A stretch of 58,558 bases of DNA, counting the filler, from Dugesia japonica (taxonomy: Eukaryota), in NCBI GenBank assembly GCA_001938525.1. It is 5 parts of 5 records of this genome, joined end to end, with 100 filler letters (N's around TTAATTAATTAA, not from the genome) between each part and the next. Parts side by side here need not be neighbours in the genome. Positions count along the whole stretch, not along the records: positions 38,999 to 49,145 come from MQRL01484283.1; 4 more parts are not named here. The stretch is one strand, 5' to 3'. The position numbers and the translations under genes were made by a program. Under the pieces are notes generated by a model. That model had not been told where the DNA came from and searched no databases. It saw only the letters and a program-made list of their open reading frames with translations. Below are positions 21,325 to 55,950 of this stretch, one piece after another. Each line of letters starts with the position of its first letter. Positions within the stretch are counted from its first letter, which is position 1.

Positions 21325-21446
21325 TTAATTTCCCGTGCAAAAATAAATTTTTGAATTTCGCACCAAAAATATTTTTTGAATTTCCCGATAAAAAAAAATT
21401 TTTGAATTTCCCGCCAAAAAAAATTTTAAATTTCCCGTCAAAAAAT
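21325..21446. repeat. Five ~24 bp subterminal repeats TTTTGAATTTCCCGCCAAAA (E2F-like core)
   Basis: Units read directly upstream of the integrase. Confidence 0.75.
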
Positions 21447-24403: not shown

Positions 24404-24814
24404 AGTAGGGGGATAGTGGCGCACGGTCATCAAAATTTTTAAGCAGTTATCGAGGGACCCCCCCCTCCCCTCGGGGGGCTCGGAAACACATTCCGCTTGA
24501 GCTGCGTTTTTTTAACTATGATTTTTGTGTTGATTTTTTTTTCTAAGATTTTTGGGATCAAAAATTTTTGATCGGATCAAATTTTTTTTGATCGATTAGT
24601 TTTTTTTGATCCTGTTAGTTTGAATGTGTGTATTTTTAAATTTTAAAATTTGTGTGTGTTTGGGTTGTTAAGGTGATTTTTAAAAAGTAGGTCAAGTTGA
24701 GTTTTTGTGTGTGGTTGTGTGTGTGTGTGAAAGTGTGGGGAAATGAGAAGGAGGAGCTGGAGATCTTGGAAATAATTTTTTTGAGGTTTTTATGATTTGG
24801 TTGATGTTGGACAA
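24404..24814 (+). mobile_element. Polinton terminal inverted-repeat segment
   Basis: Starts AGTAGGGGGATAGTGGCGCAC; 24517-24814 is an inverted, diverged copy of about 21980-22251. Confidence 0.78.
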
Positions 24815-24958
24815 NNNNNNNNNNNNNNNNNNNNNNNNNNNNNNNNNNNNNNNNNNNNTTAATTAATTAANNNNNNNNNNNNNNNNNNNNNNNNNNNNNN
24901 NNNNNNNNNNNNNNTATAATATAATATAATAATAATAAATTAATTAATTAAAACGAAG

Positions 24959-27900: not shown

Positions 27901-30900
27901 GAAGANATTATTAAGTCTGATGTATCTGTCTTTTTAAAAGAAATCAAACAAAAGATTAAAGAAGCTTATAATAAGGAACCTTCTATTTCGACTAAACATA
28001 GATTAATACAATCTTTTGAATATAGTTTCGAAAGGCTACAATTAATACCAAATCGACGAAATTTAGCAAATAATAAATCAGTCAGAAGTAATTTTGCTAG
28101 AAATATGCTTGAAACAGAAACCAATAAGATGATATTTATTGATGAGATGGACGATAATTGAGCATGAGGAGAAGATATGAGTGAGGACGTTTTGGAGAAA
28201 ATCCAAAAAAAATGTTAAATTAAAAAATGTAAATTAATTTTGAAAAGTTCAATAATTTTCTAAGTTCTAAATTTTAGTTTTAGATTTTCAATATTAATAT
28301 AAGCAGAATAACTTTTCTTATTCAAATGTACGCCATACATCATATAAAATGTAATTGCGCTACACATTTCATTGATGATTCCATAATAAGAGAAATTGGA
28401 ATTTATAAATCTAAGGATTAAAAAATTAAATCTTTGGTTATTTTAAAAAGAAGCTGAAGATTTATTAAAACACATTAAATGAGGACATTAAAATAGCAAA
28501 ATTAATATAATTGAAAGTGATTCGTTGGAATATCAANAATCTNTTTTTAAATTTATTCATTGAAAACTAAAATCTCAGTTTTTAAGAAATCGAGAAAAAC
28601 TGAGCTTTATCCATCGTTAGATACATAGACTTTATTAAAAAAAATGTTATTTTTCGAAAGTTGTATATGTTCAATTTTAAAATAAAAATTTAATGTACCA
28701 AACAATTTTTTTAAAAAGGTCTTACATAAACAGAAAATTAAAATTCCATAATATTTGAATATGAAATCTATTAGTTAATAAATATGGTTTTAAATGTTTT
28801 AAATTTAATATTAAATTTTTTTATATAATTAGGTGTTTTTAAAGATTCATTTTCAAAATTCACTGTAAATGCAAAACCTGTTGATTCTGTTGGAAATGGA
28901 GTTGTTAAAGCTATAATTTCTAACCCTTTCAATCAACGATCCACGTGTACTATTGATAATAATCACGATGGAACATATTCATGTAGCTACTCACCAGCAA
29001 TTGAAGGTTTTTCAAGTATTTAAAAAGCAAATACTTGAAGCATATTTTAGGTCAACATAAAATTGATATAACTTACGATGGAATACCAATTGCACAAAGT
29101 CCATTTTCTGTACCAGTTTTTCAAGGAAGTGATCCATCCAGAATCAGAGCTTATGGTTCTGGACTCGAAGGAGGCATAACAAAAATACCTCAACATTTTA
29201 CCGTGGATCTAGAAGGAGCTGGTCAAGGTGGGCTAGGTTTATCAATTGAAGGTCCAGCTGATGCACAAATCCAATGTTTTGATAATAAAAATGGGACCTG
29301 TTCTGTTCAATACTTACCCCAGAAGGCTGGATCTTATGATATATCAATAAAATTTAATGAAAAACATATTCCAGGTAAATCAGTGTATTTTTAATTTAAA
29401 CTAAATAGCTATTAATAATTTAATTTTTTTCAAAAATACTTATCATTAAACATTGTTGGGCAAAATTATTTGAAATATTTATAAAACTTTAAAATTTGGA
29501 AAAATAAAATGAGTACCTGTTAACGAAATCGATGCTAATTATGTGTGAATTAAAGGAATATGATCCAGATAACCATTTACGAAATAAAATCTCAAGATTT
29601 TTAATAAGATTATAATCTTAAAACAACGTTCTCAACATGAAATGGCGGAAATAACTTGAATGCGAAAAGAAACAAGGTTGCTAAAAATAAAATAGAAAGG
29701 AAATTAATATCGAATGACAAGATAGATCGTTATTTGATATTAAAGAAATTAATTAAGGTTAATGTAAAGGTGAGTAAATTGTTAATTTGTTTTGAATATT
29801 TATTTCAGCTATAGTCAATTTGAAGTAAGTTTGATTTTATAATAAATAACATAATATTTAATGTATATAAACAAATAGATAACAATAAACCAAAACTTAA
29901 TTAACAATTCACATTTAATAAATTATACAATTTTGATTTTACAATCATGTGTCTTCTATAAAAGCAAGATCAAATTTTTCAAGATTTCGAGAACAATATA
30001 TAGACGCTGAATATAATGCAATTATAGTACTACAAATGAATGATAGTAACAAATTAATTTAATTAACTCTTACACTGTATTTTAATTTATTTTTATAGTA
30101 GCTTAAGTTAGTTAAGAAACACAAAGGATAAATTTTATAACCAAATTTACTTTTGATAAAATCCAAGTAGATAAATTTCATTCAGCTCCATAGAAAAGTC
30201 TATGTCAAATAATTAGTTATTTGGTAGACCTCGAAATTTTTGTAACTAGATTTATTTCTAAATCTGTTATTTTAGGCTTATGTACATTTTTTGAATACAT
30301 TCATAATAATTTAAAATTATTGTAATTTATTTTTAGTAATTAAAATTTATTTACAATTGCAATTATTTCGAGAATAATTGTTGGACACAACCATTGATCG
30401 TTTTATAGAATTGATTTAAAATAAAAGCTTCGATCAAAATTTGTTTTTTTTGGTTTTTGATAACAATTCAATCACAATTTGTTTTTAATAAATTAAATAT
30501 TTTAAAATTTCCATGGGTTATGCAGTAAATATTTTATAATTTTAAGGAATTTTGTATTAATGCAAAATCTTTCATTAATTATGTTTTAAAATTGTAATTT
30601 GAACAATGTTTATAATTATTTATTTAATTACCTATTTATTTATAAAATCGATTTATATTTAAAAGATAAATATTTTAAATTGATTTAAGATGAATAGAAA
30701 TGTTTTTAGTGTATTTTATTAATAAAATAAATAATTAAAAAAATAACCATTTTCCTGAATTGATAAAATTTTTATTATCAATTAAACTCAATCTAAAAGT
30801 TACGTTCTTTATAATATTTCACGAGGGTGCCTCGCGTTCAATTTTAAAAAATAGAAGATAACGTCACTTATTAGGAAATGATGTGATAGTAATTTAAAAT

Positions 30901-33900
30901 TATATGAATTGAACAAATTACAATTTCGAGTATTTTAGTACAATGACCCAGATCATTTAGTTATAAATATTTAACAATTCAAAACGTTCATATTAAATTA
31001 CTTCTTCAATATTAAATATTGATTTTAAAACCAATGATTTATTTAAGTTATTGTGAAGATTTTTGAAACAGTTCTAATTTTAGGTAGTCCATTTACTGTA
31101 CCTATTCGTGATCCAATCGATGTGAGCAAAGTTAAATGCTATGGACCAGGTTTAGAAAAAAATGGTTCCCGAATACACAAACCATCAGAATTCACCGTTG
31201 ATGGAACCAAAGCTGGAGATGCTCCTTTAGAAGTTAACATAGTTGATACTTCAATGAAAACGTCGAAGCCTGCACAAATAATTCCAAGATCGACTCCCGG
31301 ACTATATGATGTCACATATATTCCAGAAAATATCGGAAATTGTGAAATCGAAGTTTTATACAACAATACACCAGTTCCTGGTTCTCCGTTTATACAAAAT
31401 GTTTTAGATTTGTGCGAACCGGATAAAGTTATTGTAACAGGAGAAGGTGTAAGGCCTTGTCGCGGTCATTTAATTGCTAATAAAATTCCATCGTTGTTTA
31501 CTGTTAACACTAGAGATGCTGGAGAAAGTGATTTAGAGTTAATGGTTTTGGTAAATAAAATTATAAAAAATGTAACTTCTGTACCATTCTGTTCTTAAGG
31601 GACCAAACAATGAATCAGTTAATTTAGATGTTGAAAATCACGGAGATGGTACATTTACATGCCAATATAAGCACGAATTACCAGGAAATTATACAGTAAA
31701 AGTATTATATGGCGAAAAAAATGTGTCTGGTTCACCATTTATAGTACCTGTCTACTCTGAAGCAAAACCAGAACTATGTTTTATTGAAGGTAAATTTACA
31801 GGCTTTTTTTAGTTTCCTAGCTTAAAAAATATTTAGCAACTTAGGAATTTGTTTTAAATTTTTAAAAATAATTTATTTAAAATTTATAAAATTTTTAAAA
31901 TAATGAAAGTTAATTTTACATTATTTCTGTTTTATTAATTAATGAAGTGTTAAGTATATTTATAGTAAAACTTTTTGAGTTAAATAATTTACGATTTTGA
32001 TTTTAATTTAATTTAAAGATCTAAAGGTTGTTCAAAAATAATTTTCAAGTTAAATTTCTGTTATAAAATAATTTGTAAATATAATTTGCTATAGGTTCAA
32101 TTCCAAATGAAGTTCCTGTTGGTAAAGCTGTCGTAATTCCAGTTAATACACAAAATTCAGGAGATGGAATTTTATCAGCAAAGAATATAGGTCCAATGGG
32201 TAATATTATTCCATGTTCCATTGAAAATGAAAGGTACGGGCATTCTACGGTATCATATATTCCTCAAAAAATTGGATCATATGAATTGCAATTATTGTTT
32301 AATGATCAACCTATTCCGAATGGTTCAATTCGACAATATGTAAGTAAATCACTTCATAAAGTAAAATTCTTTTTGACGTTAAATTAAAAGCTAATAAAAA
32401 TTATTTAGAAAAATTTAAATAGAAATAGTATTATAATGAAATTATATAATCTTTCTAATATTATATGCAATGGAACCTCAGTTTTACACGCGCGTAATTC
32501 AAGTTTCTCGTATTTACGGGCATTCTTTTTCCATTTCTTCAAAACATTAAAAAATTTTATTATTACGTTCGGAATATTTGAAATTCAATTAAATTTAAAC
32601 ATTTAATTAAAATTGCAACGATTGACAATATTTGAAATGAATATTGATAATCATAAATATCTTATTGTTATTTATGGTTACGTGTAGTCATTATCAAGAT
32701 CACAGAGTGGAATTGGTGGAAGATTTTTGTTGTACCTAGTCAGAGGCAAACAAACATAATTTTTGTCATTGTTTATTTGACTCAAAAGTATCGATCGAAA
32801 ATATTTAGCAAAAAATTTAATATTTTTTGTNNNNNNNNNNNNNNAATTTATTTTGGAGAAAATTAAGTTAAAACATGTTAACTGTTCTTTTCATAGCAAA
32901 TTCGAATGTCAGTGAGAAATTGCTTTATTAGTGACTGGAAAAGCATAAAACTTTCAATTTTCAAAAATTTCAAGTCATTAATAACGAAATATGCTGCATA
33001 TAGAAAAGCTTAGATGACTGCAAATCTATTTGAAAAACACCTTATTAGCTTAACTCTTTGCCTGTCCATATAGTAAATTATTTTACATCATCATACGTCC
33101 ACGGTAATAATTTTGTTCAAATTACGTAAACCACATGTGATGCACAGAGCAATATTTAAATGTTCTGTGCATCACATATGGTTCACGTAATTTGAATAAA
33201 ATTATTATCGTGGACGTAAGGCGAAGTGTGCACCACATATGATGCGTAAGCGTATAAATTTAAACGTCTGTGCATCATGTGATGCACAGATCAGTCAAAG
33301 AGTCAAATTCCTTGATGAGAGCTTATCCGACAAACTTAATATTGATAGTTGTAAAATTAGCTTTCTCCTTCAAACTGTATTAGCCAACTGAAATCATAGA
33401 CAAAATCCTTGCTTTCAATTATATTAAACCAAATCATTAAAATTAGAACGAGGTGAAGATCCGAAAAGATTCAAGTATGCAATGTATTACACGGTTCTGG
33501 TTTAGTGTGAAATTAATGAATGAAAAATCAAAAAATGTTTTTGGAAAGTTAGAGTAGCAACATATTATGGAACACTACGCCATTAATAGCTGGGAACAAG
33601 TTTTTGACGAACCCTTGGAAAAGTGTGGATCTCTACTTAAATATATCTGAAGTTTTGAAAATCGATGAAATAGTAGGAAATCATATCTACGAATACGTTA
33701 TACAACTCTCTAAAGATTTAAACTCAGTTCATTCAATCCAAGCGAAGAAGATGCTATGAGGTATATTGAGGACTTTAAGTACTATTACATTAACATTGCA
33801 GACACGCAAGACGAAATCTTTAAATAAATTTGTAGTACAGAATCAGTTGAATGCATCAATCCAATTTATGTGAATTTCTTAATAAAAATTTAATTTTGTT

Positions 33901-34695
33901 GAAATCCCGATTTACATTTTCATCTAATTAAATTTATTCTTGTAAATTTTTTCCAAAATATAAAAATATGGTTTCATTGTAATAACATAAAATTTTATTA
34001 AATTTTATAACTTTTATATATCAATGTTATCGATGTAAATTTTAATTTCGTTTAAAAATCAAAAGACAATTTCAGGATTTTCAAAAATAAATTATTAAGC
34101 TTGTTTAAAAACGAGTAATATACCATCCGGTACGATTTATTATTCAAGTGAAAACCATTAATAGGTTAGACATCTCAAATTTCAATACACTAAATTTGTT
34201 GCCTTTGATTGTTTTAATTATATAATTAGTAATGATATTCTCACACGTTCTACCAGCTTATTTCCTTGTTAGTTTATGTGTTAGTTTATATCAGTGATTT
34301 TCAACCTGTTTTCCACGGAACCCCGGGTTCCTCAGTCTCTAGTTAAAAATTTTGGTTACAATTTTTTAATAAAAAATATCATTATTCTTTAACTAGTTTA
34401 TTTCACTCTCCACGTTTTCGTCTTTTAGCTTTAATTTAAAATTTTGAGCACATCAGTGTTTTTAATTGAAATTTTAAAGCCTAATTCGAAAAATCACAAT
34501 TTTTAAAATTTGTTGAAATTTTATGAAAAAAATTGGGATCACACAGAAACAAACATACACCACTGAGTTTTTAATATATAAATAATTGAACAATTGGGGT
34601 TTGAATATATTTATTGAAAATTTTAAAAGGTATAATAAAAAGTCACAATTTTTGAAATTTTATGAATAATATTGCGCACAAACAAATATACGCCA

Positions 34696-34736
<41 letters not shown>

Positions 34737-37700
34737 NNNNNNNNNNNNNNNNNNNNNNNNNNNNNNNNNNNNNNNNNNNNNNNNNNNNNNNNNNNNNNNN
34801 NNNNNNNNNNNNNNNNNNNNNNNNNNNNNNNNNNNNNNNNNNNNNNNNNNNNNNNNNNNNNNNNNNNNNNNNNNNNNNNNNNNNNNNNNNNNNNNNNNNN
34901 NAGGAACAAGTATTTTATTCTTATATTGTTCTTTTGAATGACATTTTATTAATTTAAGTTTACAAATATTTTTAAAACTGAAAATAAATCTATTGTTAGA
35001 ACCGAATTTAGTACAGTGGATTTTAAATTTCCCATTGGACCTGTTTTTGATTATGTCCGAGGTAAACCAAAATTTGAATATACATTATTTTTATCTGTTT
35101 TCAGCAATAGTTAATTGTCCAAGTACTAAGAAAGATATACCTAGATTGATCAATAATGGGGATGGAACAATTACTATACAATATCAACCATCTGAAAGTG
35201 GTTTACATGAACTTGAAGTTTTATACAATGGATCTCCAATTACAGGGAGTCCATTTAAATTTTATGTGGATAACACATTACCATCGGGACAAGTTACTGC
35301 GTATGGACCAGGTTTAAGTTTTGGGCGGCCAGACGTTCAAGCACATTTTACAATTGTAACTAAAGATGCTGGTGCTGGTGGCTTATCATTAGCAGTAGAA
35401 GGACCCTCAAAAGCGGAAATTCAATGCTTAGATAATAAGAATGGGACTTGTGATGTCAGTTATTTGCCACTGGCTCCTGGAGATTATCACATTAGTATTA
35501 AGTTTATGGATAAGCATATTGCAGGTTCACCTTTTACAGCAAAAATTTTTGGTAACATATATTATTTAATGTGACGACAATTTCTTATCATTGTAGGAGA
35601 ACCTAAGAAAAGATCCCAAATTTGTGTAGGAACAACTAGTGATGTACCGTTGAAAATATCAGAAACTGATATAACAAATTTAAATGCAATTGTAAATAGT
35701 CCATCAGGAAGAGAAGAATTCTGTACTTTAAAGCGTTTACAAAATGGATATTTAGGTATTTAATTAAAATATATTAACATTATATTTTGACTTTTCATTT
35801 AAACATATTTAAGGAATTTCTTTCACTCCTAAAGAAGTTGGTGAACATTTAGTAAATGTATTAAGAAATAATAAACACATTCCCAACAGTCCATTTAAAA
35901 TCTATGTTAGTGAGAATGAGATTGGAAATGCTTCTAGAGTTAAATTATATGGGGACGGTTTAAGTGATGGTATGGTAAACGAAACATGTCAATTTATTGT
36001 GGATACGAGAAATGCAGGTAAAAAAATAAAATAATTTTAGAATTTAATGTAAAATTATATATTTTGCAACTAAGGATATGGAGGTCTAAGTCTGTCTGTT
36101 GAAGGACCAAGCAAAGTTGAAATTGAGTGTCATGATAATCATGATGGAACTTGTCTTGTTACATACAAACCAACAGAACCCGGAACATATATAATTAATG
36201 TTAAATATGCAGATTCAAATGTTCCTGGAAGCCCATTTGCAGTTAACATTGGTGGATATCCTAGTTCAAAACTCACAGAAAGAATAATGAGACATCAAGA
36301 TGCCGCCGAAGTTTCCCAAATTGGAAATGTTTGTGAATTAAATCTTATAATACCAGGTTATTAATGGCAACTATTTTAAAATTCATTTTTGTATTTAGGG
36401 TATAATCAGAGAAACATTACTGCATCAGTAATAAGTCCTTCGGGAATAATTGAAATGTGTGAAATAATCGCCTTAAGTGAAAATCAATTTACAATAAGAT
36501 TTATGCCGAAAGAATTAGGAATTCACACTGTTTCAGTTAAAAGTGAAAATCGTCATTTGGCTGGTAAATAATCGATTTTATAAATATTTTCACGAAACCA
36601 TCCTTAGGTAGCCCCTATCAATTTACAGTTGGACCCTTGATTGATGGTGGACCTCACAAAGTCCAAATTATTGGCAACGGTATAGAACGAGGATTATGTA
36701 ATGATATGAATCAGTTTACTATCTATACAAGAGAAGCTGGTGCAGGAAGTTTGTCAATTGCAATTGAAGGACCTAGTAAAGCTGAAATTGATTTCCAGGT
36801 AGATGTAATAAATAACTAGATATAAAGTGCATAACTTTAAATTAAAGGATAACAAAGATGGTTCTTGTGGAGTAACTTATAGAGTAAATGAATCTGGAGA
36901 TTACACATGTAGCATAAAGTTCAATGAGCAACATGTCCCAGGATCACCTTTTATATTGCAAATTGATGAAAATCCATATTCATCATTTTCTAGACCTGCT
37001 AAAAATGAGAATATTATATTCAATGATAGTCGATTTATCAGTATTGCTGCTCTTCAAGATCAAGGGCTCAATGTAGTTTTAAATTTATGTATTTCAAATT
37101 ATATGAGTTATTACAGATAGGAAGTAAAGCAAATTTTGTTATTAATTACCATGGATTGAATGATGGATCAATAAATGCTTATGTTGTATCACCATCTAAT
37201 AAAGAACAAATAGCTTCAATATCCAAAATTGATAGTAATCAATATAGTATTCACTTTGTACCTGTAGAAAATGGAATTCATAATGTTCATGTATTGGTTA
37301 ATAATTCTTCAATACCAGGAAGTCCTTTTAGAGTCGTTGTTGGTGAGGTTAAAGTTTCTGGTGAGGGTATTCATCATGGATGTACGGGTAAAATCAATGA
37401 GTTTTTTGTGGATACCTCTAATGCTGGAAATGGAGCTCTCACTGTCACAATTGATGGACCCAGTAAAGTTCAACTAAATTGCCAAGAAAATGAAAACGGT
37501 TACAATTTCACATATATCCCAAATATTCCGGGAAATTATACGATTTCAATAAAATATGGAGGAAATAATCATATTATTGGGTCACCTTTTTATGTAATGT
37601 TTTTAAAATTTTGTTGTGTGCTTTATTTTTGTCATAGGTGTCGGTAAGTGGTAATTATTATCAGTCAAATGATGCCATAAAAGAAACTAATTCTCTTACA

Positions 37701-38073
37701 CAAACTGTTCATATGATAAGCAATTCAACAAACAAAGGTCCTTCTAAACCATTTAATGTTAAATGTGAAGGTGATGGGTTACGAAGAGCTGAAATTGGTA
37801 AAAGAAACGAATTTATTGTTGATGCTGGATTAGCAGGTATTTAAAAAGTTATTAATTTATATAAAAACTTTTCAATTAATATTAGGTGGTGATGTTCTTT
37901 ATGTTGGTGTTTCTGGTCCTGTTAGACCATGTGAAGAAGTTAATATCAAACATTTAGGAGATAATAGGTTTCAAATAAATTATTTTGTCCAGGAAAAAGG
38001 TCGTCATTTATTAATGGTTAGATGGGGAAATCATGATGTTCCTGGAAGTCCTTTTGAAATTTTTGTACCTTAA
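24959..38073 (+). CDS. FLN: Filamin (Ig-like rod repeats through the C-terminal dimerisation repeat); 5' partial, multi-exon
   Basis: About 19 filamin repeats (KVKAYGPGL...DNGDGT..Y.P...G.Y.I.V.Y....IPGSPF), ending [10 protein letters not shown]. Exons deduced from GT-AG and frame: 24959-25079, 25124-25317, 25361-25618, 25969-26086, 26336-26563, 26610-27082, 27131-27482, 28833-29006, 29051-29374, 31084-31550, 31600-31789, 32095-32339, (exon in N gap ending ~34909), 35000-35061, 35105-35551, 35597-35755, 35814-36017, 36075-36356, 36399-36563, 36608-36798, 36848-37072, 37117-37593, 37638-37836, 37886-38073. Confidence 0.96.
27672..28200 (+). pseudogene. IS630/Tc1-like transposase fragment in a filamin intron
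   Basis: HTH ([24 protein letters not shown]), winged-helix region ([10 protein letters not shown]) and first catalytic motif MIFIDE. Confidence 0.75.
32469..33850 (+). mobile_element. Probable decayed pogo/Tigger-like DNA transposon in a filamin intron
   Basis: TIR-like CAATGGAACCTCAGTTTTACACG; remnant [10 protein letters not shown] resembles a psq-HTH start; very degenerate. Confidence 0.35.
33054..33302. mobile_element. Palindromic MITE with TTAA-type target site
   Basis: TTAA|CTCTTTG...CAAAGAG|TCAA; internal ~58 bp-arm inverted repeat at 33094-33218. Confidence 0.65.
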
Positions 38074-38564: not shown

Positions 38565-38898
38565 TTGTCACGAGGTTGCTATTGGGAATTTTATGCTGCA
38601 AAAGTCAGTAATTTGTACATAAAGTACAATAGTCAAAATCATGCAAAAGCACATTACAATTCAGATAAACATAAAAGTATGTTACTTGCCCAATTACAAT
38701 GTAATGAATCAATTTACATTAAACCAGAAATTAGAGATATTTTAAGTAAATATAAAGATTATGAAATTAATTATTTAAAAAATGTAAAAGTAGAAATGAA
38801 ATTAAATATAACTAAAATATTTATTGAACCAATTAGAGATCTTCACGTATTTTATAATCAAGTTAAAGAAATTATTACTAATTATTTTAATTTTGCTA
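38565..38898 (+). pseudogene. Fragment of a Polinton zinc-finger/pPolB N-terminal region (paralogous to 51244-51760)
   Basis: SQNHAKAHYNSDKHK vs RQNHARTHYNSDRHK; IRDILSKYKDYEI..KVEMKLNI vs IRELLKEYEDYEI..KVEMKLNV. Confidence 0.75.
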
Positions 38899-41800
38899 NN
38901 NNNNNNNNNNNNNNNNNNNNNNNNNNNNNNNNNNNNNNNNNNTTAATTAATTAANNNNNNNNNNNNNNNNNNNNNNNNNNNNNNNNNNNNNNNNNNNNTA
39001 ATTCCTGAACTCGTGGATTCCAACACCCAAGATTTTCGAGAGGAATTTATTGAAGAAGCAAACAGATATTATGAAATTTCAATGACTTAGAATCAGTTTT
39101 AACAACAGGTGCAGTCAAATTATATGAAACAGTGAATGACGCTATTTGACGAGTTTTTAGAAAAACATGTAAAGAAGAATTTTCAGAGTGCTGCAGATCT
39201 TGGAAAATATTTAATTAATATCTTGAAATATTGAAAACTCAATGAATTTTCAATTCCATTGTTGGTTTAATAAATAATTTAGTAAATACTTATAATAATA
39301 TAATACAAAGAATGATTAATATGACTTTAAATGGAGCATCATTAAATTCAAAGAAAGCCTAACTAAAAACCACATAATAGAGTTTATTTAATATATGAAG
39401 TATTTATTCATATAGAATAGTTTTTTTAAAATTAATTAATCTCGTAATAAACGAAAAATGAGAATAATTATAATACTAATAATAATAATTAAAATTACAA
39501 TAAACGTTTTTAGTCTCCTGAGTGATAGTTCCGTTTAAAATAATTAAAAAATTGAGGTAACATGAACTACATACTCATTAAAATCCTTAAATTGCAAAAA
39601 TAAACATTTAATAAACATCTTAAAAGTATAATCTTATGAATTTGTACAACTCAATAAAGAAAAATATAAAAGAAATAGATTGAAACAAATAAAAGTTAAG
39701 CCTAATTTAGTTATTTATATTTCTATTGAAGAAGTAAACTGTAATACAAATGACAATCTGAGCTTTGCGTATCTACTTAGTTAAACTTCGTTGAACTAAG
39801 CTTCTCTTAAAATAATACTTAGATAAAGAAATAATTTGATAGGAATAAATGATTTATAGTGTACAACATGCAAAGATTTAAAGGAAATAATCAAATTATT
39901 TCTGGAATATGAGTGAGTTCCAAGTCTTTTCGATATTAATCTTTAATTCACCACAGCATTCGACCTGGCTCTGTTTCGATTGGTTACATTTATGTTTAAG
40001 GGATTATATTTCAAAACTTCAAGAATTTATGTGATATCCTCTTCTGCCAGATCTCTGTTCTGGCTGTTGTTTTTGCTTGCTCAGTTTCATTTATTGCATT
40101 TTATAAACAAATAACAGATTGATTAAACACGAAATTCTAATTATCGATTAAAGTTTACTGGTCAAATATATCTTCAATGGCAATGTTACCCGCGGAGTTC
40201 GCTTCTGACTAATTATCGTACTCCTGCCAATACGTCCTTGTATTCGTCCAGTGATTTTCTGGTAACGTTATGTCCAAAAACATTCTGTTATTATGTACTT
40301 GTGGCAGTTCCTGTCTTTCGCTATCACTCACTCGGGTTTTCATTGAACAAGCAAGTTTCCTCCGCGGTTTTTTGCAATTTCTTATTAATTTTGACTAATA
40401 TTTTATATTTTCACTGCATTGCTATTAATTCTATTATTTCTCCATCATTTCTCTATAAAATTATTTATATTAATTCACTTAATTCATATGTCATTTTTCT
40501 CTAAATTTTAATGGTAGTTCTAGCCCAAAAAATATATCAAAAGACATAAATTACGCTTCCTAAAAGAAAGACTGCTTAAATTACGTAAAAACTCGTAATG
40601 GATGACTATATAAATAATAATTACAGAAAAGTATAATTTAATTTTGTATGGTCGTGTATTAGTTACAAATTGAGCTTCAAATATTTCTAACAATAATATT
40701 TTTAAAAAAAGATATTTAAAATATTTTTTATACTTCATAACAACTAGAAAATGTTACATTTAACAATTTTATTTTATATATTATGCTTTCCGCGAGTAAA
40801 ATATCATTTGTATATATCTTGATTATTTTCATTTTCTACATCAAAAATAATTAGATTTTTCTTTTCTTTCAGAAGTGAATCACAAAATAGTATATAATCA
40901 TTTTTATTGCCTAATGCTCCGTCTATAGCTTTAGAACCCTTAGAGCTTACTTTCAAAGCAGTTTTATAATTTGAGTGAGATCTTTTCGAAAATCACATCT
41001 TTCTTCTGAAAACCATTGAATTATTTCTTTCGAAATTTTAATACGTTCAGGAATTAAACGTTGTTTTTCAAAAATAAATAAAATAACTTTTTTTATGTTT
41101 ATTTTTGATAAAATTCCTATTTTAATAATTGTATTTCAAATTGAATTATTCTTGTTAAATTAACAATTAAATTATTAATATATCTACAAAGTATAGCCAA
41201 AAGAAAAAGGCTTGGCCAAAATATTGATTAAAAAGAACAACAATATTTGATCTTATGAATTTTAAATATTTTATTCTAAATAATATTATTTATTTAGTTA
41301 TTTCACTGATCAATGATTAAAATCTGTAAAGAAAAGAGTTATGTTAATGTTGACAAAACATTAACCGCGAATATTTTCAATGAATTTAAAATTATTAATA
41401 ATAACCAATGAAAATTAAATTTAATTAAGTTAATTTAATATGGGTTGTTATTTCAAAGTTTGTAATCAGAATTCAAGGAACTATCGTTCCTGAAGAAGGA
41501 ATAGCCCAGTGGTTCCCAAACCTTTTTAAATTTTCCACTGGAAGGTCCCTTAACAAAAAATAATTCACATCATGAGTAGATAGATAGTGGCGCACGAGAA
41601 CAGCACACATTTAGTAAGCCCTTCCAACCCCACCCAGTTAACGTAATCGGATTATTACATAAGTGTTTTCGTATTTTTCCAATGTAAATAGGCAGTGGCA
41701 CACATTTTTGTGCATTTCATATTGCAATTAATTTCTTCGCGACATTATTACGCAACTGTTTTCGTATATCTCAATGTATTTAGTTGAGAAATTATTTTTG

Positions 41801-44800
41801 CACACAAATTATGTCATCAGATTAATTTCATTGGTGAAATTTTATGTAAAAGGAATAACTGTTTTCGTATTTTCCTGTGTATTTAGTTAGGGAAAGTTTT
41901 TGAGGTTTTTTAAGCCGTAATGTGATGTTTAATTTTTCCTGTGTAATTAGTGGCGAAGAATTTATGGCTTTTTAAGCAGCAATATTTTTTAGGCTTTTTA
42001 GTTGGGAATTTGCTCGGTGAGGTTGAATGAGGTCAATTTTGATTGGTTCAGGTAAATTTGGTTGAATATTTCCTCNNGTTTGAGCAGTTTGGATAAATTT
42101 GGTTGGATTTAGGTAATTTTTGTGTGATTTGGTGGAAATTTCCTTCTGTGAGGTCGATCTTTGATTGGTTCAGGTGAATTTGGTCTAAATTTTTCTCGGG
42201 ATTAGTAATTTTTGGGTTATTGGTTGAACGTTTTCTTCGGTTTTGATTATTTTTGGAAATATTTGGAAGATTCGGTAAATTATTTACGCGGTTTAGGAAA
42301 TATTGGTCAATTATTTTCTCTGGATTGGCTAATTTTGGTCGTTTTTGGATAATTTGGGCAATTATTTCCTCACAAGGCTAAATTTTAGGAGAATTTGAAT
42401 GATAATTTTCCGGTCTGGCCAGTTTCGATTGAATTTTAATGAAATTCATGTGAAAAGTTGAATTTGTTTAAATTTTCCAGTTTTTTAAAAGATTTTTGCG
42501 GAATCCGGGCAAACCGTTCATGTTGTTCAAATAATATGAAAATTTAAAATTTTTTCAAATGAAATTTTTATGGGAGTGTTGGTGAACAGTCTAAATATTT
42601 GAGAAAATATGTTCTATATCTCAAATTTCAAAGATTTTTATACCAAACTGCTGAGAATTTTACGGCAATTATTTTACACAAATAAAAGATTTTCGAAAAT
42701 ACTTACCTTCTTAAATAGGTTAAGAAAGTGTCTATTCGATAGAGAATTGTTTGAACCTTAAATCGCCAAAGTTAATACTCAATGAAATAAATAGGGTTTT
42801 ATGGTGGAAAAATCTCAAATGTCGAATTTTTTATACTCAATTTTCTCTGCGTACATAACTCGTATGGTTTCAAATTTGGTATCATTTTACTCAGGAGAAA
42901 AAGGTAACTGTGCAAAGTTTAAATATCGTCTCGTTTAAATATCGTTTAAATATCACCCTCCCGGATTTGGTGACATTTTTCGAAAAATATGAAAAGTAAC
43001 TCAAAATTGATACTATTGGATGGGAGATTTTACGGTAAGTACGAATAACCCGGTTAAAAATCACCAAGCTTTATAGATAAAAAGTTATATTAAAAAACAA
43101 GTATTTTATTTTGGGAGTCCCCGAGAAACAGAAAATAGTTTAATAATTTACTCGATTCAACCTATTTTTTGTATTGGGTTTCCCACACTTCACTAGTACT
43201 CAGTTATCAAAGCTCTGATCACAGTGTTCTGATTGCCGTGCACTAGATTTCAATCATCAATGATTTTATTGAATATTGGTCTTTTCCATTACTTACTGGT
43301 TTGAATCCGCTATTTGCAGTTTTTTTACTAGTAGTAAATATACTGTTTAATTAATATTTAATTATTTAACCTATTCTAAATTTTCACTTGTAATTTTGAT
43401 TAATTTAATTAATGTTTAAGTTTTTATTAAGTATTGGTAATTTTTAAAAATTTCTAATTATTTTTTGAAAAGATTGCAAATAGTATTGATTGAATAAATT
43501 AAGTATGGTGAATTGATTAATTTTCAATGTGTAATTTGATTGAAACTATACCTCTGTAAGTAAATGTTTAATCGTGTTTTGAAAATAAATTAGATTTCAA
43601 TTATATATTTTTTATGATTAAATTTAAAATTTTTTGCGGTTAAATTAAAATTATAAAAAAAATGTTTATTAATTATTGATGCAAAATTTGAAATATTTTT
43701 AAATCAAATTAAATTTCGTATGTATTTTTTAATTAATGTTTAATTGATAATAGAAAAGTTTTATTTAGCATTGATTCATTAAAATAATTTCTAAACAATT
43801 ATTCGAAATAACTCATATAATTGATAAAATAGATTAAGCATGATGGATTTAATAATTTTCAAATAATTATCAGTAAAAGTACATACAACTTGAATTTATG
43901 TGAAAACACATTAATATTAGAATAATCTTTCAAATAAATAGTTAAATTATGCTTTTTAAATAAGAGTAGAGTATTAATGAAAATAAAAACTTAACTCAAA
44001 TTTAAGCATCAAAATAACTATTAGATATTGAATTTAATGCTAAATAGGAATAAAATGGTAAAAAATCGTCAATCTTTAACCTCAATGAAAATAGTTAATT
44101 TCAAACTTTAATTATAATAATTGAAATTTATATTAAGCATTAAATAATTTTAAATATTTATTGAAAGTAACTTAAATAATTGATTGAATAAATACTTTTA
44201 ATTAATTATGAAGAAATTATCTAAAACTTTAATGTTAAGTGTAAAATAAAATAATTTTAGACATTTTAAATAAGAAGTGAAAATTTAAGCTTTTCACAAA
44301 TAAATGCCTATTATTGGTACTTCTTTATAAAATTTAAACTTTTACAATTATATAGGGGAAAAATCTTTACAATTTATGGTTTCACATTCAGTAAATTCTA
44401 AAATAAATAAAGATAACTTTTTATTTTCAATGAGGATATTACAATAAATAATAATAATTTNAAAATTAAATTCAATGAATCAAATTAGCTACTCAAATAG
44501 TTATTGATTTGATTATAATTTTACTTTGAATAAAATTTCTTTGAAGATTTAACTAATTAATTTAAAAAAATATTTAAATGAATAAATTCATTGATTTTAA
44601 AGGTTAATACTAGGTTTAATTGGATAAAAGTTTAATGATTGAATAAATTTATGTTCCACGTAGTTGATTAATTGATTAAAAAACCTATTAAAAATATATT
44701 GTTTAATAGATATTACTTTATTAAAGTGAATAATAATTCAGTTTATTCGGGCTATTAGTTGTAAAGTATATAATAGAGTTAATAAGCGATGAACAGATTA

Positions 44801-44829
44801 AACCATTAACTGAATAATTAATAGGTAAA

Positions 44830-45075
44830 TGATGATAGCGTGCATTATGTTTTAGTGAGAGTTGTGTATGTCAAGAGCTGTTGGTAACTAGCATTGTGTA
44901 TGTTAACACTTGATTATAGTGAGTATTGTATATGTTAAGAGCTGTTGATAACGCGTATTATGTATTAAGACTTGATGAAAGCGAATATTGTACTGTTTGT
45001 ATGTTAAGACTTAATGATAGCGAGTATTGTGTTTGTTAAAACTTGGTGATAGCGAGAGTTGTGCACTATGACTTA
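44830..45075. repeat. Degenerate ~30 bp tandem repeat (GATAGCGAGTATTGTATGTTAAGACTT)
   Basis: About 8 diverged units read directly. Confidence 0.65.
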
Positions 45076-45304
45076 AACCATATTATAACGAATATTATAC
45101 TAAGTATGATTAATATGTAAATAATGTAGACTAGTTGAACTGACCCTATATTTTCAAAGGATTTTATTATATTAAGAGGGAAAATATGTCGATGATTGAC
45201 TGAATTATTTAGTTTGATTGATAGTACAATTAAAGTACAATTGTTTAAGTGAACAATTGGTAGATTTTTTATAGTCACTTGGCAGTATTAGAGTCATTAT
45301 TACA

Positions 45305-45720
45305 GTTTATGTAAATTTTAACTAGCTTTATAAAAGTTTGTGGACATTTTCAAAGATGAATAAAAAGTTCCTGAAAACTTGCAATGATGCTTAAAAAGTT
45401 CCTATAAATTATAACCAGCTTTAGAAAAGTTCATGTAAATATTCAATAATTTTGAAAAGGTTCTACTAAATTTTAGAATTTTTTTCCCGCTCTTTTACAT
45501 AGGATTTTATGAGTTTAGAAAATTCATGTAAATTTCGACTAGTTTTAAGAGTTCATGTAAATTTTTAACAATGTTTTAAAAGTTTGTGTAATGTTTCAGC
45601 GACTAGAAAAAAGTTCTAGTAAATTTTCATCAATTTGAAGAAAGTTGTAGTAAATTTTCAATCATCTTTTAAAAGTTCATGTAAATTTCAGATAAAATTA
45701 TTTGACTTCATGTAAATTTG
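45305..45720. repeat. Degenerate ~30 bp tandem repeat (AAAAGTTCATGTAAATTTT core)
   Basis: About 12 diverged units read directly. Confidence 0.65.
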
Positions 45721-47699
45721 ATAATACAATCTCACTTTTTTTTGTCATCATTGGTATTAGCTTCATCCCACTTTTTTTCATTTTTCAAACTTAATGCGAT
45801 GAAACATACTAAGAATGATGTGAAACCTGATTTGAATAATAAATAATTAAGTATTAATTGTTTGTCAATATGTTGTTCTAAATAATAAATTATAATGTAG
45901 TGGAGACTACTTACAACAATTGCTTTATTGAATAAATATGTTTTAATGGTCTTATATTTAATTATAAAAACCTATAGTTTTCATATTGAAACTCAAATTT
46001 TCTTGTTAAAACCAGTATTTTTATAATAAACTACCTGTTTTCCATTAAACCAATATTTTTAATGTGGAATAAACTGGCCAGACCGGAAAATTATCATTCA
46101 AATTCTCCTATTCGTTTCTATTTCTCTCCCCTTGTGAGGAAAAAAGTGCCCAAATCGTCCAAAGCTGACCAAAACAGACTAATGTAAGAAAAATTCAACC
46201 AATATTATCTAAACCGAGAAAATAATTGACCAAATTTTCCTAAACCGAGTAAATAATTTACCGAATCTTCCAAATATTTCCCAAACTAACCAAAACCGAA
46301 GAAAACCCAATCACCCAAAAATTACCAATCCCGAGAAAAAATTAGACCAAATTCACCTGAACCAATCAAAGATCGACCTCATTCGACCTCGCCGAAGGAA
46401 TTTTCCACCAAATCACACAAAAATTACCTAAATCCAACCAAATTTATTCAAACTGCTCAAACCCGAGGAAATATTCAACCAAATTTACCTGAACCAATCA
46501 AAATTGACCTCATTCAACCTCACCGAGCAAATTCCCAACTAAAAAGCCTCAAAATGTTTTCCCATTTAAACACGCATGAAAATACGAAAACAGTTAATCC
46601 TTTTTCATAAAATTTCACCGATGAAATTAATTTGATGTCATAATTTGTGTGCAAAAATAATTTCCCAACTAAATACATTGAGAAATACAAAAACAGTTGC
46701 GTAATAATCTCTCGACGAAATTAATTGCATTATGAAATGCACAAAAATGTGTGCCACTGCCTATTTACATTGGAAAAATACAAAAAAACTTATGTAATAA
46801 TCCGATTACGTTAACTGCGTGGTGGTGGGAGGGGCTTCCTGAATGTGTGCTGTTCTCGTGCGCCACTATCTATCTACTATCATGTTCCCCAAGCTTCAGA
46901 ATGGGTTATATTTAGGTTTACTATTAAATCTTTAATACGGATACATTTTTAAAATGTTTTATTTTTAAATTTCTATCTAATTAAATAAACTGTATGATTT
47001 GCACATAATAGCATTTTAAAGCTCAGAGATTTCCAAAAAATTAAAGTTGAACTTCAGCAGATAAGATTTTATAGTGTTCACCAAAGTTGTATGACGCAAA
47101 CCATATGCACAATCTCTTTCACAGTCCCAAAAAACACTTTCGAGTTCCCTAGTTTGGGAACTACTGGCATTGCCGAAATATTGAATAAAAGAAGAACAGC
47201 AGTTTTGATCTTTTGCTTATAAAATATTTTGTTTTAAATAAAATTGTTTATTTAGTTTTTTTTACAGATTAATAGTCAAAATATTTTAAAAAAAGTTTAG
47301 TCAATTAATACAATAAATATGCCTGCTTTGAAGAAGTTAATGGAAGCTTAATTTTAACTTTAAAATTTAAATTAGTTAATAATTCTGGTGATTCTAGTTA
47401 ATCTTTATAAATTCTAGAGAAACCCGTAAAATTTAAAAACCCAGGAAGATGACAAGGATACAAATAATATTCAATGTTTTAAAAATGTATTATCCTCTTA
47501 AAAAGTTTTATTTATTTATTTTTATTAATACGGTCATTTGGAAAGCAATGGCGGATCTTTGAATATTCCTGACTTTCAGGAAAATCTATAAAGAATATAT
47601 ATTTTCAATTGATTTTTATTTTAATATATATAAGAACCATGTTTCCTATAGATTGCAAAAGTTTATATAGGATTTTTGTCATCACTGTACAAATTAATT

Positions 47700-47990: not shown

Positions 47991-49499
47991 ACCTCCAAAC
48001 TTCTCTCTTCAAAAGATATTTCACTGATAATTTTTGCATTGCATCATTACTTGTGTTGAAAGTTGATTATTTTTAATTACAACAAATATTATGAAGATTA
48101 GTCCTTTAAATACTTCGAAAAAATGATGCTTCATCCGAAGAAGTCTATGGTCAACAGTGGGTGTTCTAAAAATAAATAGAGTTCTATCGACCAATTCATT
48201 TATAAACAACTAGAGAAACTCTACTTGTTCGTATTGTTTTACGAAGAAATATTGGAAAAACAAATGCTGAAAATATTGAGCTTCCCTTATTTAGACTTAA
48301 TATTTAAAAGACTTGATTTAATGGAAACATTTGTTTCGAAAACATGGTAGTATTCTTTTCATTGGCTTTTAATTAAAAAAGCAATCAATGTTCTTTTAAA
48401 GTCCATATTTATTTGCTTTTAAACTATTTTAGTGATGAAGTTAAAAATCATGAAGAATATAATATTTTTGTACTTCTAAATTGTAAAGAAATATATTTTT
48501 CATAGATTTTAGCTAATTGTTTTACATTAATGTTTTTAGATTTGTATTTTTAAATAATTCAAAGAATACTTAAGGAAAGTTATACTTGCTATCATTTTAA
48601 AAATATATATGAAAAATATTTCAATTGCATAAATTGCATGCTCAACCTCTGAACTTTCTATTATGATGATCATTATATTTTACCTTGTCTACAGTTTCAT
48701 TCAATTCAATTTTACAAGAGTGGCATTTTAAAATAAAGACAAACGAAAACACGCCAAACAATGTTCTATACAAATCAAACAACAATGAAATATTTGTTAA
48801 AACGAAAGAAAAAAATAATACTTTATTCATAAAGAAAAACTATTTAAAATAGTATTGATTAAAATTTAATATCAAAAAAACAAAATTCATAAAAAATTCT
48901 ATTAAATCAAAGCAAAATCTTTGTAACTTATTTTAATTATTTCATTATTTCATTAAGTAGTAATCAGAAACTTTCTTAACAGACAGTAAAATATAAAATT
49001 TTCTCTAACAGACTTTATATTATAATTATAATTAAAAAATGTGGTCACAATTATAACTAATTAGTGGACAATGTCTTCTTTTATGATTGATTATTTCATA
49101 ATTACTTTTGAAATGTTTGCAGCATTAATAAATACAAGATACAAANNNNNNNNNNNNNNNNNNNNNNNNNNNNNNNNNNNNNNNNNNNNTTAATTAATTA
49201 ANNNNNNNNNNNNNNNNNNNNNNNNNNNNNNNNNNNNNNNNNNNNCATCAAGGGTAAGGTCAACCGCAATAAACTGAAAACCTACCATAGGGACGGTAGG
49301 GTTAAATTCTTGAAAAGGGTCCCCTGAGGACTGTTTTTGAGCATGGTTTTTTTAATATAATCAAAATGGTAATTAAATTTATTTTATTATTACTTTCTGA
49401 TTTTAATATTAAGAATCATCTATTTTCTCGATAATAATAAACTAGATGTTCAAACACAATTTATTTATCATTGAAATAACACAGTNNNNNNNNNNNNNN

Positions 49500-50937: not shown

Positions 50938-51180
50938 AATATTTTAATGTAGCATATTTTTAGTGTAAAATATGTGAAGTAATATTTTAATGTGACATAT
51001 TTTAGTGTAATATTTTTAGTGTAATATTTTAATGTGACATATTTTAGTGTAATATTTTTAGTGTAATATTTTTAGTGTAATATTTTAATGTGACATATTT
51101 TAGTGTAATATTTTAATGCGAAATATTTATGAAAAAAATGTAACACGAAACATGTGACATATATTTTGTGTGATAAAATA
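50938..51180. repeat. Tandem 13-15 bp repeats (AATATTTTAATGTGACATATTTTAGTGT) upstream of the pPolB module
   Basis: More than 12 units read directly. Confidence 0.8.
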
Positions 51181-51243
51181 TTCACGCATTAAAGAGGAAT
51201 ATTATAAAAATATATTTAAGAGGTTAAATTATTCCTTTAGAAA

Positions 51244-51561
51244 ATGAGTGATACAAACAAATGTAATAATTGTAATAAAAAGTTTAAGAGTTTAGCTGGG
51301 TTTAAAGCCCATGTTAGATTTAGAATATGTTATAGAGTAAATGAAGAATTTCAATGTGAAACATGTCGTAAAAAATTCAATTCAGAAAATGGTTTACAAG
51401 AACATTTAAATGTAACAAGATGCGGTAATCCAGTGATTGTACCATTATTCTGCGAAATTTGTAATAAAATATTTCAAAGACAAAATCACGCAAGAACACA
51501 TTATAATTCTGACAGACATAAAAAATGGTACGTAATGGTAATCAATCAGGTGGAGAAGTAA
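51244..51561 (+). CDS. Three C2H2/C2HC zinc fingers (probably the N-terminus of the pPolB ORF)
   Basis: CNNCNKKF..H, CETCRKKF..H, CEICNKIF..HARTHYNSDRH. Confidence 0.75.
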   Translation: MSDTNKCNNCNKKFKSLAGFKAHVRFRICYRVNEEFQCETCRKKFNSENGLQEHLNVTRCGNPVIVPLFCEICNKIFQRQNHARTHYNSDRHKKWYVMVINQVEK

Positions 51562-51844
51562 TTAATTCTAAATAAGAAATTAGAGAATTATTAAAAGAAT
51601 ATGAAGATTATGAAATTGAAAATTTTAAAGAGAGTAAAGTGGAAATGAAATTAAATGTAGATGAAATATATGAAACAGTTACTAATATTTATATATTTCA
51701 AAAGGAAGTAGAAGAAATTGTTACAAAATATTTTAAATATGGAAAAAAGATTCTTATAAGTATGAAAGTTAAATGCAGATATGAAAAAGAAATAAATAAT
51801 GAACAAATAAATAAATAAATAAATAATTATCCAACATTAAATTC

Positions 51845-54318
51845 TTTCAACTTAAGACCGAAAAAAGCTCACTTTCCATATGAATATGTGAAAGGAAATA
51901 ATATAACAGAAGTTGAAGAATTATTAAAATCAAACCGAACACCAACCAAAAAAGATTTCTTCAACACACTAACCCAAAAAGAAATATCTGATGAAAATTA
52001 TGCGTCATTTCTAATTGACTTTCGCGGATATAAAAATATGTGGTGTTACATGTTACACTATATGAAGTTAGATGTTTTAATTCTAGCAGATTTTTTAGAA
52101 AACTTTAGAGATTCATGTTTAAATAATATTCTTAAATTGGATCCAAGTTATTCATATTCGGCTCCAGGTTACGCATGGGATACAGGAATATTAAATGCTA
52201 ATGTAAAACTTAAATATGCCAAAGCTGAAACATATGATCTTTTCTTAACAATTGAAGATGGAATTAGAGGTGGATATTCTGTAGTTTTAGGCAATAGACA
52301 AGTATTTAGTTATAATAAATATAAAGATCCATATATTAGACAACTAAATAAAGCANAGTTTGAAGATTTAATAAAAATTATGAATTCAGGACAAGAAATT
52401 CCAGATCATTATTATGAAGATGCATTTATTAAATATTTAGATGAAAATAGTCTTTATGCAAGTTGTATGACTAAACCATTACCAACAAGTGAAATGAGCG
52501 AGTGTGAAAATTTAGCATATGAAATGTCAAATGATAACACTAATTATATTTATGAAGTTGATTTAGATTACCCACGAGAAATACATGATAAAACTAAATA
52601 TTTTCCATNNNNNNNNNNNNNNNNNNNNNNNNNNNNNNNNNNNNNNNNNNNNNNNNNNTAATTATCAAAAAAGTTTTAATAAGAAAATTGGAAAGGAAAA
52701 TATTAAACTCACATTAAATCATTTTAATAAGAAAAATTATGTTGTACTTGGATCAACATTAGATTTATATCTTCAATTAGGAATGAAATTAACAAAAGTA
52801 CATAAGAAAATTAAAATGCCAACATCTCCATAGTTTAAAAATCATGTTCACAAATTAGTGGCTTTAAGAAAAGAATCTAAAAGAATTAAAGATGTCTTTG
52901 GTGATTACATTTACAAATTAATGTTAAATGAATTTTATGGAAAGACATTAGAAAATTTAAGAAATAGATGCAACATAGAAATTGTAGATAATGACAAAGA
53001 CTATCAAAATTTTGCAGCTAAAATAAATTTTAAATCAAGTAAAATCTTTACAATGAATGAAAGTAATGAAGCAAATGTCGCGGCAATGCAGATGATAAAA
53101 GGTCATTTAAAATATAATAAATTTCCATATATTGGATTCACTATTTTAGAATATGCAAAAGAAGTAATGTATAATTTTGTATATAATAAAATGGATCCAT
53201 TTATTGGAAATGGTAATTATAAAATTCATTACAGTGATAGTGTAACATCTGACACCCCAATAATACTACGGAAAAATAATAAAGTTATAATAAAAAAGAT
53301 TTCAGAAATAAATAAATCTTACAGAAAAAATATTTATGATGATAAATATTATTCTTATCCAGAAAATTATCAGATATGGACTAAAAGTGGATTTACTAAC
53401 TTAAACAAAGTAATTAAACATAGAACAAATAAAAAGATTTATAGAGTTAGAACTAAATTAGGAATTGTAGATGTTACACAAGATCATTCACTATTAAATG
53501 AATATGTTAAAGAAATAAAACCAACAGATGTAACATGTGAAACTAAATTATTACACAATAAAATATTTAATATTAAAGATAATAAATTTACATGTAGTTT
53601 TTTAAATAAAATATTTTCAGATAAAACATCTTTAGCTAAATCATATTTTTATGGAACATCTTTAGGAATGAATTTAATTATTACAAAAAATTTTAAATTA
53701 ATAGAACCAACAGAAGAAATTGAAACTAATGTGCAAAGTGTAACATTTTTAAGAGAAGGTGTTTAAGATGTTTATGATATTGAAACAAGTGACGGATCAT
53801 TTAACTGTGGATTTCCATTAATAATAAAAAATACTGATAGTATCTTTGTGGAGATAAAAAACAGATATAATTTAACAAAATTACAAACTTTACTAGGAGA
53901 TGATTTATTTCAGATGAAAGACGAAATGCATAATTCTGAAATAATTCAAGCTAATTTTATAAAAGCAAAATCTTATGGTTTTACTTATATTATCAATGAC
54001 CGCGAAGTATTTGATTTAAAAAATAAAGGTGTAAAGAAAAATAATAAATTGTTGATGAAAGATTTTGATGAAGTTTTAGATGATCCAAAGAAAAAGATTT
54101 ATGGAACAAATTTTTCATTAAGATCTAGCTTACATGAAATTGAAATTGTAGAACAAAATAAAATTGCATTAATGAGATATGATGATAAAAGAATTATTGA
54201 AGATGATGAAATAACAACTTGGGGACATGGAAGAGAATATGAATGTTCTTTCTGTAATCAATGGCTTTTAAAATTAGACATGATAAACAAAAATTTAACA
54301 TGTTCTCAATTTTTATAA
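51845..54318 (+). pseudogene. polB: Protein-primed family B DNA polymerase (pPolB), with intein; a few stops, one gap, N-terminal exonuclease part deleted
   Basis: KAHFPYEY; ExoIII YMKLDVLILAD; IRGGYS; motif A YLDENSLYASCM..PLP; motif B YKLMLNEFYGKT; motif C YSD//TDS; FIKAKSY; KNKGVKK; YDDKRII. Confidence 0.93.
53239..53832 (+). mobile_element. Mini-intein (198 codons) in pPolB motif C
   Basis: Block A SVTSDTPIILR; block B IVDVTQDHSLL (TxxH); block F DVYDIETSDGSF; block G IIKN followed by +1 Thr. In frame with both exteins; one TAA at 53764-53766. Confidence 0.93.
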
Positions 54319-55709: not shown

Positions 55710-55779
55710 AAACATGAAACATTTTACATGAAATATTTTACATGAAACATTTTACATGAAACATTTTACATGAAACATT
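55710..55779. repeat. 14 bp tandem repeat (ACATGAAACATTTT) x5
   Basis: Read directly; interrupted by the LTR at 55780. Confidence 0.85.
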
Positions 55780-55950
55780 TGTTGGGGTTCTACCTGAGTT
55801 TGGAAAAGTNNNNNNNNNNNNNNNNNNNNNNNNNNNNNNNNNNNNNNNNNNNNNNNNNNNNNNNNNNNNNNNNNNNNNNCAGTTTACCGCGGTTGACCTT
55901 ACTCTCGATGGAAGGTACACGCCAGTAAACCTTTGACTTCGGGTTCTACA
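55780..55950 (-). repeat. Probable 3' LTR of retroelement D with upstream polypurine tract
   Basis: Minus strand: AGGGAAAGTA|TGTAGAACCC...GTAGAACCCCAACA (TG...CA termini). Confidence 0.6.

Follow-up and report, generated by a model that had tools for sequence, protein, structure and literature searches.

In Polinton nomenclature, the "N1" of a name such as Polinton-1N1_DR denotes a non-autonomous family, and Kapitonov and Jurka are said to have described non-autonomous Polinton families in 2006. Polinton-1N1_DR itself is a zebrafish element (PMC9341505). Tlr1 used to be classed among the non-autonomous Polintons but has since been reclassified (PMC5499653, PMC4028283). Intact vertebrate Polintons, also known as Mavericks, have a 6-bp target site duplication (TSD), terminal inverted repeats (TIRs) of 46–1447 bp and (AGT)2 or (AG)3 ends (PMC8097293), and in Schmidtea Polintons are targets of PIWI-interacting RNAs (PMC8532177). 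Movement of Polintons is still inferred from their genes, and surveys are built to pass over gene-free forms: Polinton-like entries under 10 kb were discarded in one (PMC4028283), and gene content was the basis of selection in others. Here, we describe a gene-free element with Polinton-like ends from the planarian Dugesia japonica (GCA_001938525.1), which probably belongs to a non-autonomous Polinton family that relies for its mobility on the proteins of coding Polintons, acting in trans. The stretch of DNA analysed, hereafter the window, is 58,558 nt long and consists of five pieces separated by 100-base N spacers with a central 12-base palindrome (9531–9630, 24815–24914, 38899–38998 and 49146–49245). 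No spacer falls inside the element, which lies in the piece from MQRL01484283.1 (38999–49145); neighbourhood across spacers is uncertain.

The element spans 5304 bp, from 41575 (AGTAG) to 46878 (CTACT). Inspection of the sequence places ATCATG directly outside both ends (41569–41574 and 46879–46884), and the seventh bases beyond the ends are unequal, so that the TSD, observed at this one locus, is exactly 6 bp; equal flanking hexamers would arise by chance with a probability of 0.001–0.002. The TIRs, about 0.8 kb each, occupy 41575–42425 (+, ~850 bp) and 46071–46878 (−, ~810 bp). Their alignment contains 706 matches, 52 mismatches (p = 0.069) and 149 gap columns, giving 93% identity in aligned columns, and the outermost 37 nt of both are identical. 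In the left TIR, a conserved tip of ~20 nt that is common to other Polinton ends is followed by a family-variable stretch (TIR positions ~20–200) and, further inward, by degenerate subterminal repeats.

Between the TIRs lie a non-coding segment common to a second, partial copy in the window (42426–43163, +; by blastn, alignment and depth), the interior stretch with the least summed depth, a candidate variable segment or breakpoint (43164–43330, +), and a very AT-rich non-coding core (43331–44830, +; GC ~0.2) with high summed depth in all bins and faint internal similarities at ~335–360 bp. A repeat search identified two degenerate tandem arrays beyond the core, with periods of 32 bp (~44833–45075, +) and 31 bp (~45297–45740, +). 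Unit number in the 32-bp array differs among copies, and contigs with depth in the hundreds to thousands omit 48–180 bp there. An initial annotation of the window had proposed the AGTAG..CTACT ends, the ~0.8-kb TIRs, the flanking ATCATG and both arrays, all of which were recovered here.

The right junction, including the right TSD copy, is covered by a difference-free contig (46852–46990) in two public sequencing runs from two studies (X1 and X3), at depths of 8.65 and 7.09. This contig reaches 27 letters into the element, short of the 31-letter rule, and its counterpart at the left junction only 9, so both junctions are supported rather than strictly bridged. The insertion is hosted by an older miniature element (41507–47166), ~350 bp long without the insert, which we take to be hAT-like. 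Its 15-nt inverted ends carry one mismatch, its 8-bp flanks agree at 6 of 8 positions, and depth at 46930–47010 is multi-copy.

The interior of the element (42426–46070; 3645 bp, GC 0.23) is non-coding, rather than decayed coding sequence. Stop-free frames in it reach at most 79 aa and frames opening with ATG at most 50 aa, the shuffle means for the longest of each being 77 and 57, respectively. Pfam returned no family in any of the six frames of the whole element, read through stops with X. The AT-rich interior without a credible open reading frame (ORF) of the initial annotation is thereby confirmed. Codon periodicity is 0.2–1.5 in all 15 interior bins, unlike the two decayed coding Polintons of the window, where it reaches 3.4–7.8 in 5 of 10 bins and 4.0–7.1 in 7 of 12; the test therefore detects decayed genes in this sequence, and the interior shows no such signal. 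When 12 window proteins were searched against the element by tblastn, the best E was 0.04; nhmmer of the element against the coding remnants gave nothing at E < 0.01. Low-stringency blastn matches between interior and remnants (57–73%, 14 rows) were dismissed as AT-richness because nhmmer gave none. Rfam yielded no match to the element at E <= 0.1. Neither Pfam nor tblastn found the protein-primed DNA polymerase B (pPolB) or rve integrase of autonomous Polintons in the element, which at 5304 bp also lacks their capsid, ATPase and protease genes and their 12–25 kb size. In a poly(A) RNA run aligned on the right end of the element, one of 104 reads reached at least 95% identity, indicating that the reads derive from other loci.

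While the interior carries no genes, a terminal motif shared with a coding remnant ties the ends of the element to Polintons. AGTAG-N(2-7)-TAGTGG occurs five times in the window (22349 −, 22636 +, 24404 +, 41575 + and 46878 −), against 0.125 expected from 40 simulations. The occurrence at 22349 closes a decayed coding Polinton (17200–22349, −), which contains an rve integrase and chromodomain identified by profile matches, a 25/26-bp subterminal array and a TIR. Its ORF remains end in a double-jelly-roll capsid-like ORF (Atlas score 0.97), which lies closest to the Atlas clusters of Preplasmiviricota and double-jelly-roll proteins; the recognition value is sub-threshold, and the ORF serves as supporting evidence only. 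The second end of this remnant was not found. The initial annotation had assigned the element to Polintons on generic hallmarks, and a motif that also closes an integrase- and capsid-bearing remnant gives better support for ends that appear to be of Polinton type. Outside the window, exact-pattern scans of metagenome contigs and viral contigs for the terminus and a conserved interior stretch gave no matches, an integrase search of viral contigs gave 19 pattern matches with none confirmed, and a search for homologues of the capsid fragment gave one unnamed match among 99 candidates, which was uninformative.

Beyond the ~20 terminal bases, the TIR of the coding remnant does not align with that of the element (scores of 23–28, at shuffle level), placing the remnant in a different family. 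The remnant thus shows a kinship of ends and is at most a candidate helper. Homology that stops after ~20 bases could also come from a non-autonomous cut-and-paste derivative with a 6-bp TSD, from IS3EU/GingerRoot or an undescribed superfamily, with an incidental likeness to Polintons; very high copy numbers are generally known to be typical of such miniature inverted-repeat transposable element (MITE)-like elements. We consider this very improbable. IS3EU and GingerRoot agree with the element in their 6-bp TSD but disagree in their termini, which are TA..TA in IS3EU and TA..TA or TG..CA in GingerRoot (PMC10045372) as opposed to AG..CT here, and the TGTNR termini, 4–5-bp TSD and 40–270-bp TIRs of Ginger1 and Ginger2 all fail to fit (PMC2836005). 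The 0.8-kb TIRs, in turn, suit Polintons, and the terminal motif is shared with a remnant that bears capsid and integrase.

The partial copy (22636–23967, +) represents the left end of a diverged member of the same family, which had inserted into the RNase H region of a gypsy element. It is colinear with the element to 43163, over the first 1.6 kb, with 19% mismatches, and blastn matches 42262–43163 to 23055–23967 at 77%. The first ~200 bp behind the tip vary between family members (41595–41775 against 22656–22795), while sequence further inward is conserved, and the copy aligns well to the element only from 41775 on. Gypsy integrase sequence comes next, from ~500 bp further on in the gypsy host, indicating that a single deletion removed the right part and its TSD along with ~500 bp of the host. 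The initial annotation was correct that this copy (given as 22636–23968) shares sequence beyond the TIR, although it is a left-end fragment only. The conclusion then drawn, that the copy reveals a family rather than a one-off deletion, does not follow, because the left end would be common to a gene-free or a coding parent alike and so cannot tell them apart.

The neighbourhood of this copy holds a further Polinton-type terminus (24404–24814, +), which runs into an assembly gap and shows 84% similarity in its TIR to the coding remnant. The termini at 22349 (−) and 24404 (+) face apart around the 2-kb gypsy fragment that holds the partial copy, making three Polinton-type insertions within ~2 kb.

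Contigs of public runs were aligned to the whole element for 4 of 24 listed runs, from three studies, and to its right end for four contig sets (three DNA or unlabelled and one RNA run); contigs of the DNA runs count integrated and free copies together. The whole interior is highly repeated, parts of it hundreds of times or more, and is thus neither single copy nor, as the codon periodicity indicates, decayed coding sequence, two of the three findings that would have undone the initial annotation. In X1, summed depth in all 16 wholly interior bins is 62,780–385,023 at a single-locus depth of 8.65, and it is 3–53 in the outermost flank bins. Bins at 42468–43139 have summed depths of 60,000–474,000. 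Interior summed depth is thousands of times that of unique flanks, and its pattern is alike in all four runs. Summed depth was rejected as a measure of copy number (234–1436 copies with the largest overlap factor, 7,258–44,511 without). As a floor, mean depth per contig was divided by single-locus depth, a figure that is halved if the locus is heterozygous. This floor is 138–692 copies on one contig (X1) at 9 of the 22 interior sites listed, between 43552 and 45798, with 570 further rows beyond these sites.

Among the 33,932 contigs aligned in X1, 2642 match at 99% or above, 7450 at 95–99%, 15,049 at 90–95% and 8791 below 90%, marking the copy as a diverged family member. With TIR arms 7% apart and most contigs 90–95% alike, it appears oldish, and contigs common to hundreds of copies point to younger sub-families.

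Repetition of this kind could in principle arise if the interior were a patchwork, built up at this one locus from unrelated high-copy repeats that gathered between two Polinton arms. Nested elements do crowd the window, and depth varies about six-fold between interior bins. Such a patchwork is scarcely credible, however, as no interior bin drops towards single-copy depth, the partial copy is colinear with the element over the first 1.6 kb, and the interior holds no internal TIR pair or clear nested boundary, its longest inverted repeats being 35 nt at 71–74%.

Contig loose ends accumulate exactly behind 46878. At 46878, 46879 and 46880 there are 130, 55 and 33 in one run, 136, 64 and 37 in a second, and 131, 52 and 44 in a third, totalling 218, 237 and 227 contigs. 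The fall-off is base by base with an agreement of ~0.42, as would be expected of many unrelated AT-rich flanks meeting one sharp boundary behind CTACT. Judged by eye, the best-supported 24 of 10,002 loose ends resemble diverged versions of adjoining element sequence, none switching to unrelated DNA. The strongest contig joints are mostly small skips in arrays and TIR repeats. Two others, from 43324 to 41966 and from 42846 to 46313, are single contigs of depth 300–1000 in three and two of the four runs, respectively, and hint at rearranged sub-families; their shorter sides are just 18–40 letters long.

These patterns bear on an alternative in which the family owes its abundance to full-length coding Polintons with long non-coding arms. 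In that case an internal deletion, a one-off or rare event, would have removed all genes from this locus during or after insertion, and nothing gene-free would ever have amplified. The partial copy shows that local deletions strike these elements, and the coding Polintons of the window do have non-coding arms with tandem arrays (~1.5 kb between the terminus at 22349 and the integrase). Mavericks are known to reach thousands of full-length copies, over 4700 in T. vaginalis (PMC12289875), and are reported as expanded in Dugesia (bioRxiv 10.64898/2025.12.11.693146); coverage of the element is thin at 43178–43287. A deletion would nevertheless require gene-free arms of 5.3 kb with both breakpoints outside ORFs, and no coding relic remains. 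The junction of thousands of copies into other DNA would be expected among the best loose ends, whereas none of the 24, judged by eye, is of that kind, and two diverged contigs cross 43163 colinearly. We regard a deletion as unlikely, and the loose-end and joint pattern favours a contiguous gene-free family, without proving it.

Several observations weigh against such a family. The five listed sites at 43178–43287 have a summed depth of only ~500–2700 and could hide a breakpoint, although this cluster may be a variable segment. At the 13 of the 22 listed interior sites outside the nine with a high floor, the copy floor is ~5–104, with five low rows (43265, 43269, 43276, 44047 and 45776) counted as low from the depth listing rather than computed; low-floor sites are often positions at which nearly every other copy departs from this one. 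The count of more than 200 flanks per run pools both ends and all families with the same tip, the judgement on loose ends covers 24 of 10,002 rows, and short contigs cannot establish colinearity over 5.3 kb or link both ends. The source of the assembly may itself be among the runs. Given the rearranged forms, the family falls short of a single uniform unit. Neither another full-length copy nor another TSD was observed in the window, where the partial copy halts at ~23967 with right TIR and TSD absent, and contigs from other copies of the host miniature element align only from 46903 on, beyond the pre-insertion site. Finally, no coding Polinton with the TIR of the element was found, both other TIRs in the window scoring at shuffle level.

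A non-autonomous Polinton family mobilised in trans remains our preferred reading. A further-reaching proposal, which we put forward tentatively and think somewhat doubtful, is that a completely gene-free 5.3-kb satellite multiplied as a unit until it reached a thousand or more copies (megabases) and exceeded in number its coding helper, whose terminal protein, polymerase and integrase it would use to replicate, and that much planarian "Maverick" annotation represents this passenger.

Non-coding arms of a coding Polinton, once joined, were the likely starting point of the element, which would then have been amplified as a unit. Slide-back initiation and panhandle formation are known models of replication; short AG-TAG/ATAG repeats at the tip would fit the former, and the long TIRs would let the displaced strand fold back into the latter. 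Judging from Polinton biology, the conserved tip may be the origin for the helper's terminal protein and pPolB, and a terminal-protein domain has been predicted in Polinton pPolB (PMC11161782). Insertion of the linear copy, with a 6-bp stagger, would fall to the rve integrase of the helper. We thus infer helper-driven replication and integration of the element.

The window contains a second Polinton-like remnant (51819–54315, +), a pPolB gene (PF03175) interrupted by stops and gaps. An intein-like insert at ~53239–53832 lies in polymerase motif C, matches TIGR01445 (E 8e-10, above cut-off) and weakly resembles the N. equitans split polymerase intein (E 0.012). Among 43 longer homologues, the best two are unnamed environmental pPolBs that carry both intein and LAGLIDADG domains; a limited literature search found no report of an intein in an animal-genome Polinton. 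Arrays of 14-bp period lie on either side of the remnant (50938–51128 and 55712–55780), a C2H2 zinc-finger ORF (51241–51558) adjoins its array, and a motif scan of the window found no AGTAG terminus for it. Upstream of this pPolB, 51555–51669 matches 38706–38820 at 75% over 115 nt; the latter lies in the 3′ flank of a filamin gene and is a piece of a further copy of the intein-bearing family. The filamin gene (24960–38070, +; PF00630) has many short introns, and its top identities among near-full-length matches are 67–68%, to cestode filamins, in keeping with a flatworm host. At 313–736, a 17/18-bp array precedes a second array, whose units contain the presumably AP-1-like sequence TGA(G/C)TCA; the region is possibly the end of another element.

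The interest of the element lies in its abundance together with its complete lack of genes. No gene-free, high-copy planarian Polinton family is described in the literature searched, which lay outside Repbase, Dfam, subscription papers and the supplements of the Dugesia preprint; these supplements may hold a matching repeat entry. The element is likely a new non-autonomous family within a known kind, and the category of gene-free Polinton passenger is probably not new. The family could alter the reading of Maverick expansions in planarian genomes (10.64898/2025.12.11.693146). If the family is as proposed, hundreds to thousands of dated gene-free insertions would be evidence from genomes that ends alone suffice for Polinton proteins to act in trans. 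The family would also reveal which terminal bases are conserved across families (here ~20 nt) and which are variable, and it would supply a large set of target sites. On the further-reaching proposal, a comparison of copies would define the minimal cis signals needed for Polinton replication and integration.

To judge by their names, the non-autonomous Polintons of Repbase, such as Polinton-1N1_DR, are like the element in having Polinton ends without autonomy. It shares with Polintons/Mavericks a 6-bp TSD, long TIRs and an AGTAG start close to the (AGT)2//(ACT)2 motif, but is 5.3 kb long rather than 12.7–24.6 kb and lacks pPolB, integrase, ATPase, protease and capsid genes (PMC8097293). The sixth terminal base is A in the element, T in Mavericks and G in the coding remnant of the window. 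Polinton-N1A_NV still encodes a capsid protein (PMC11296320), whereas the element has no ORF. Insect polintons without polB appear to be still mobile, implying help in trans as for the element (bioRxiv 10.1101/2025.02.07.637071), but are at least 12 kb long, retain other polinton genes and carry transposable-element cargo. Transpovirons and Tlr1 are likewise small, linear, TIR-bounded and helper-dependent elements of the Polinton supergroup (PMC5499653, PMC4028283); transpovirons ride with mimiviruses, and both encode a helicase–pPolB fusion, with capsid and integrase in addition in Tlr1, while the element encodes nothing. The likeness to MITEs and large retrotransposon derivatives (LARDs) is one of cis ends only, with high copy number reached through the proteins of an autonomous partner (PMC6431247 and general knowledge). 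The element is far longer than a MITE, and its partner would be self-replicating and virus-like. In its manner of working, the element is the MITE or LARD of a Polinton, and not an autonomous Polinton.

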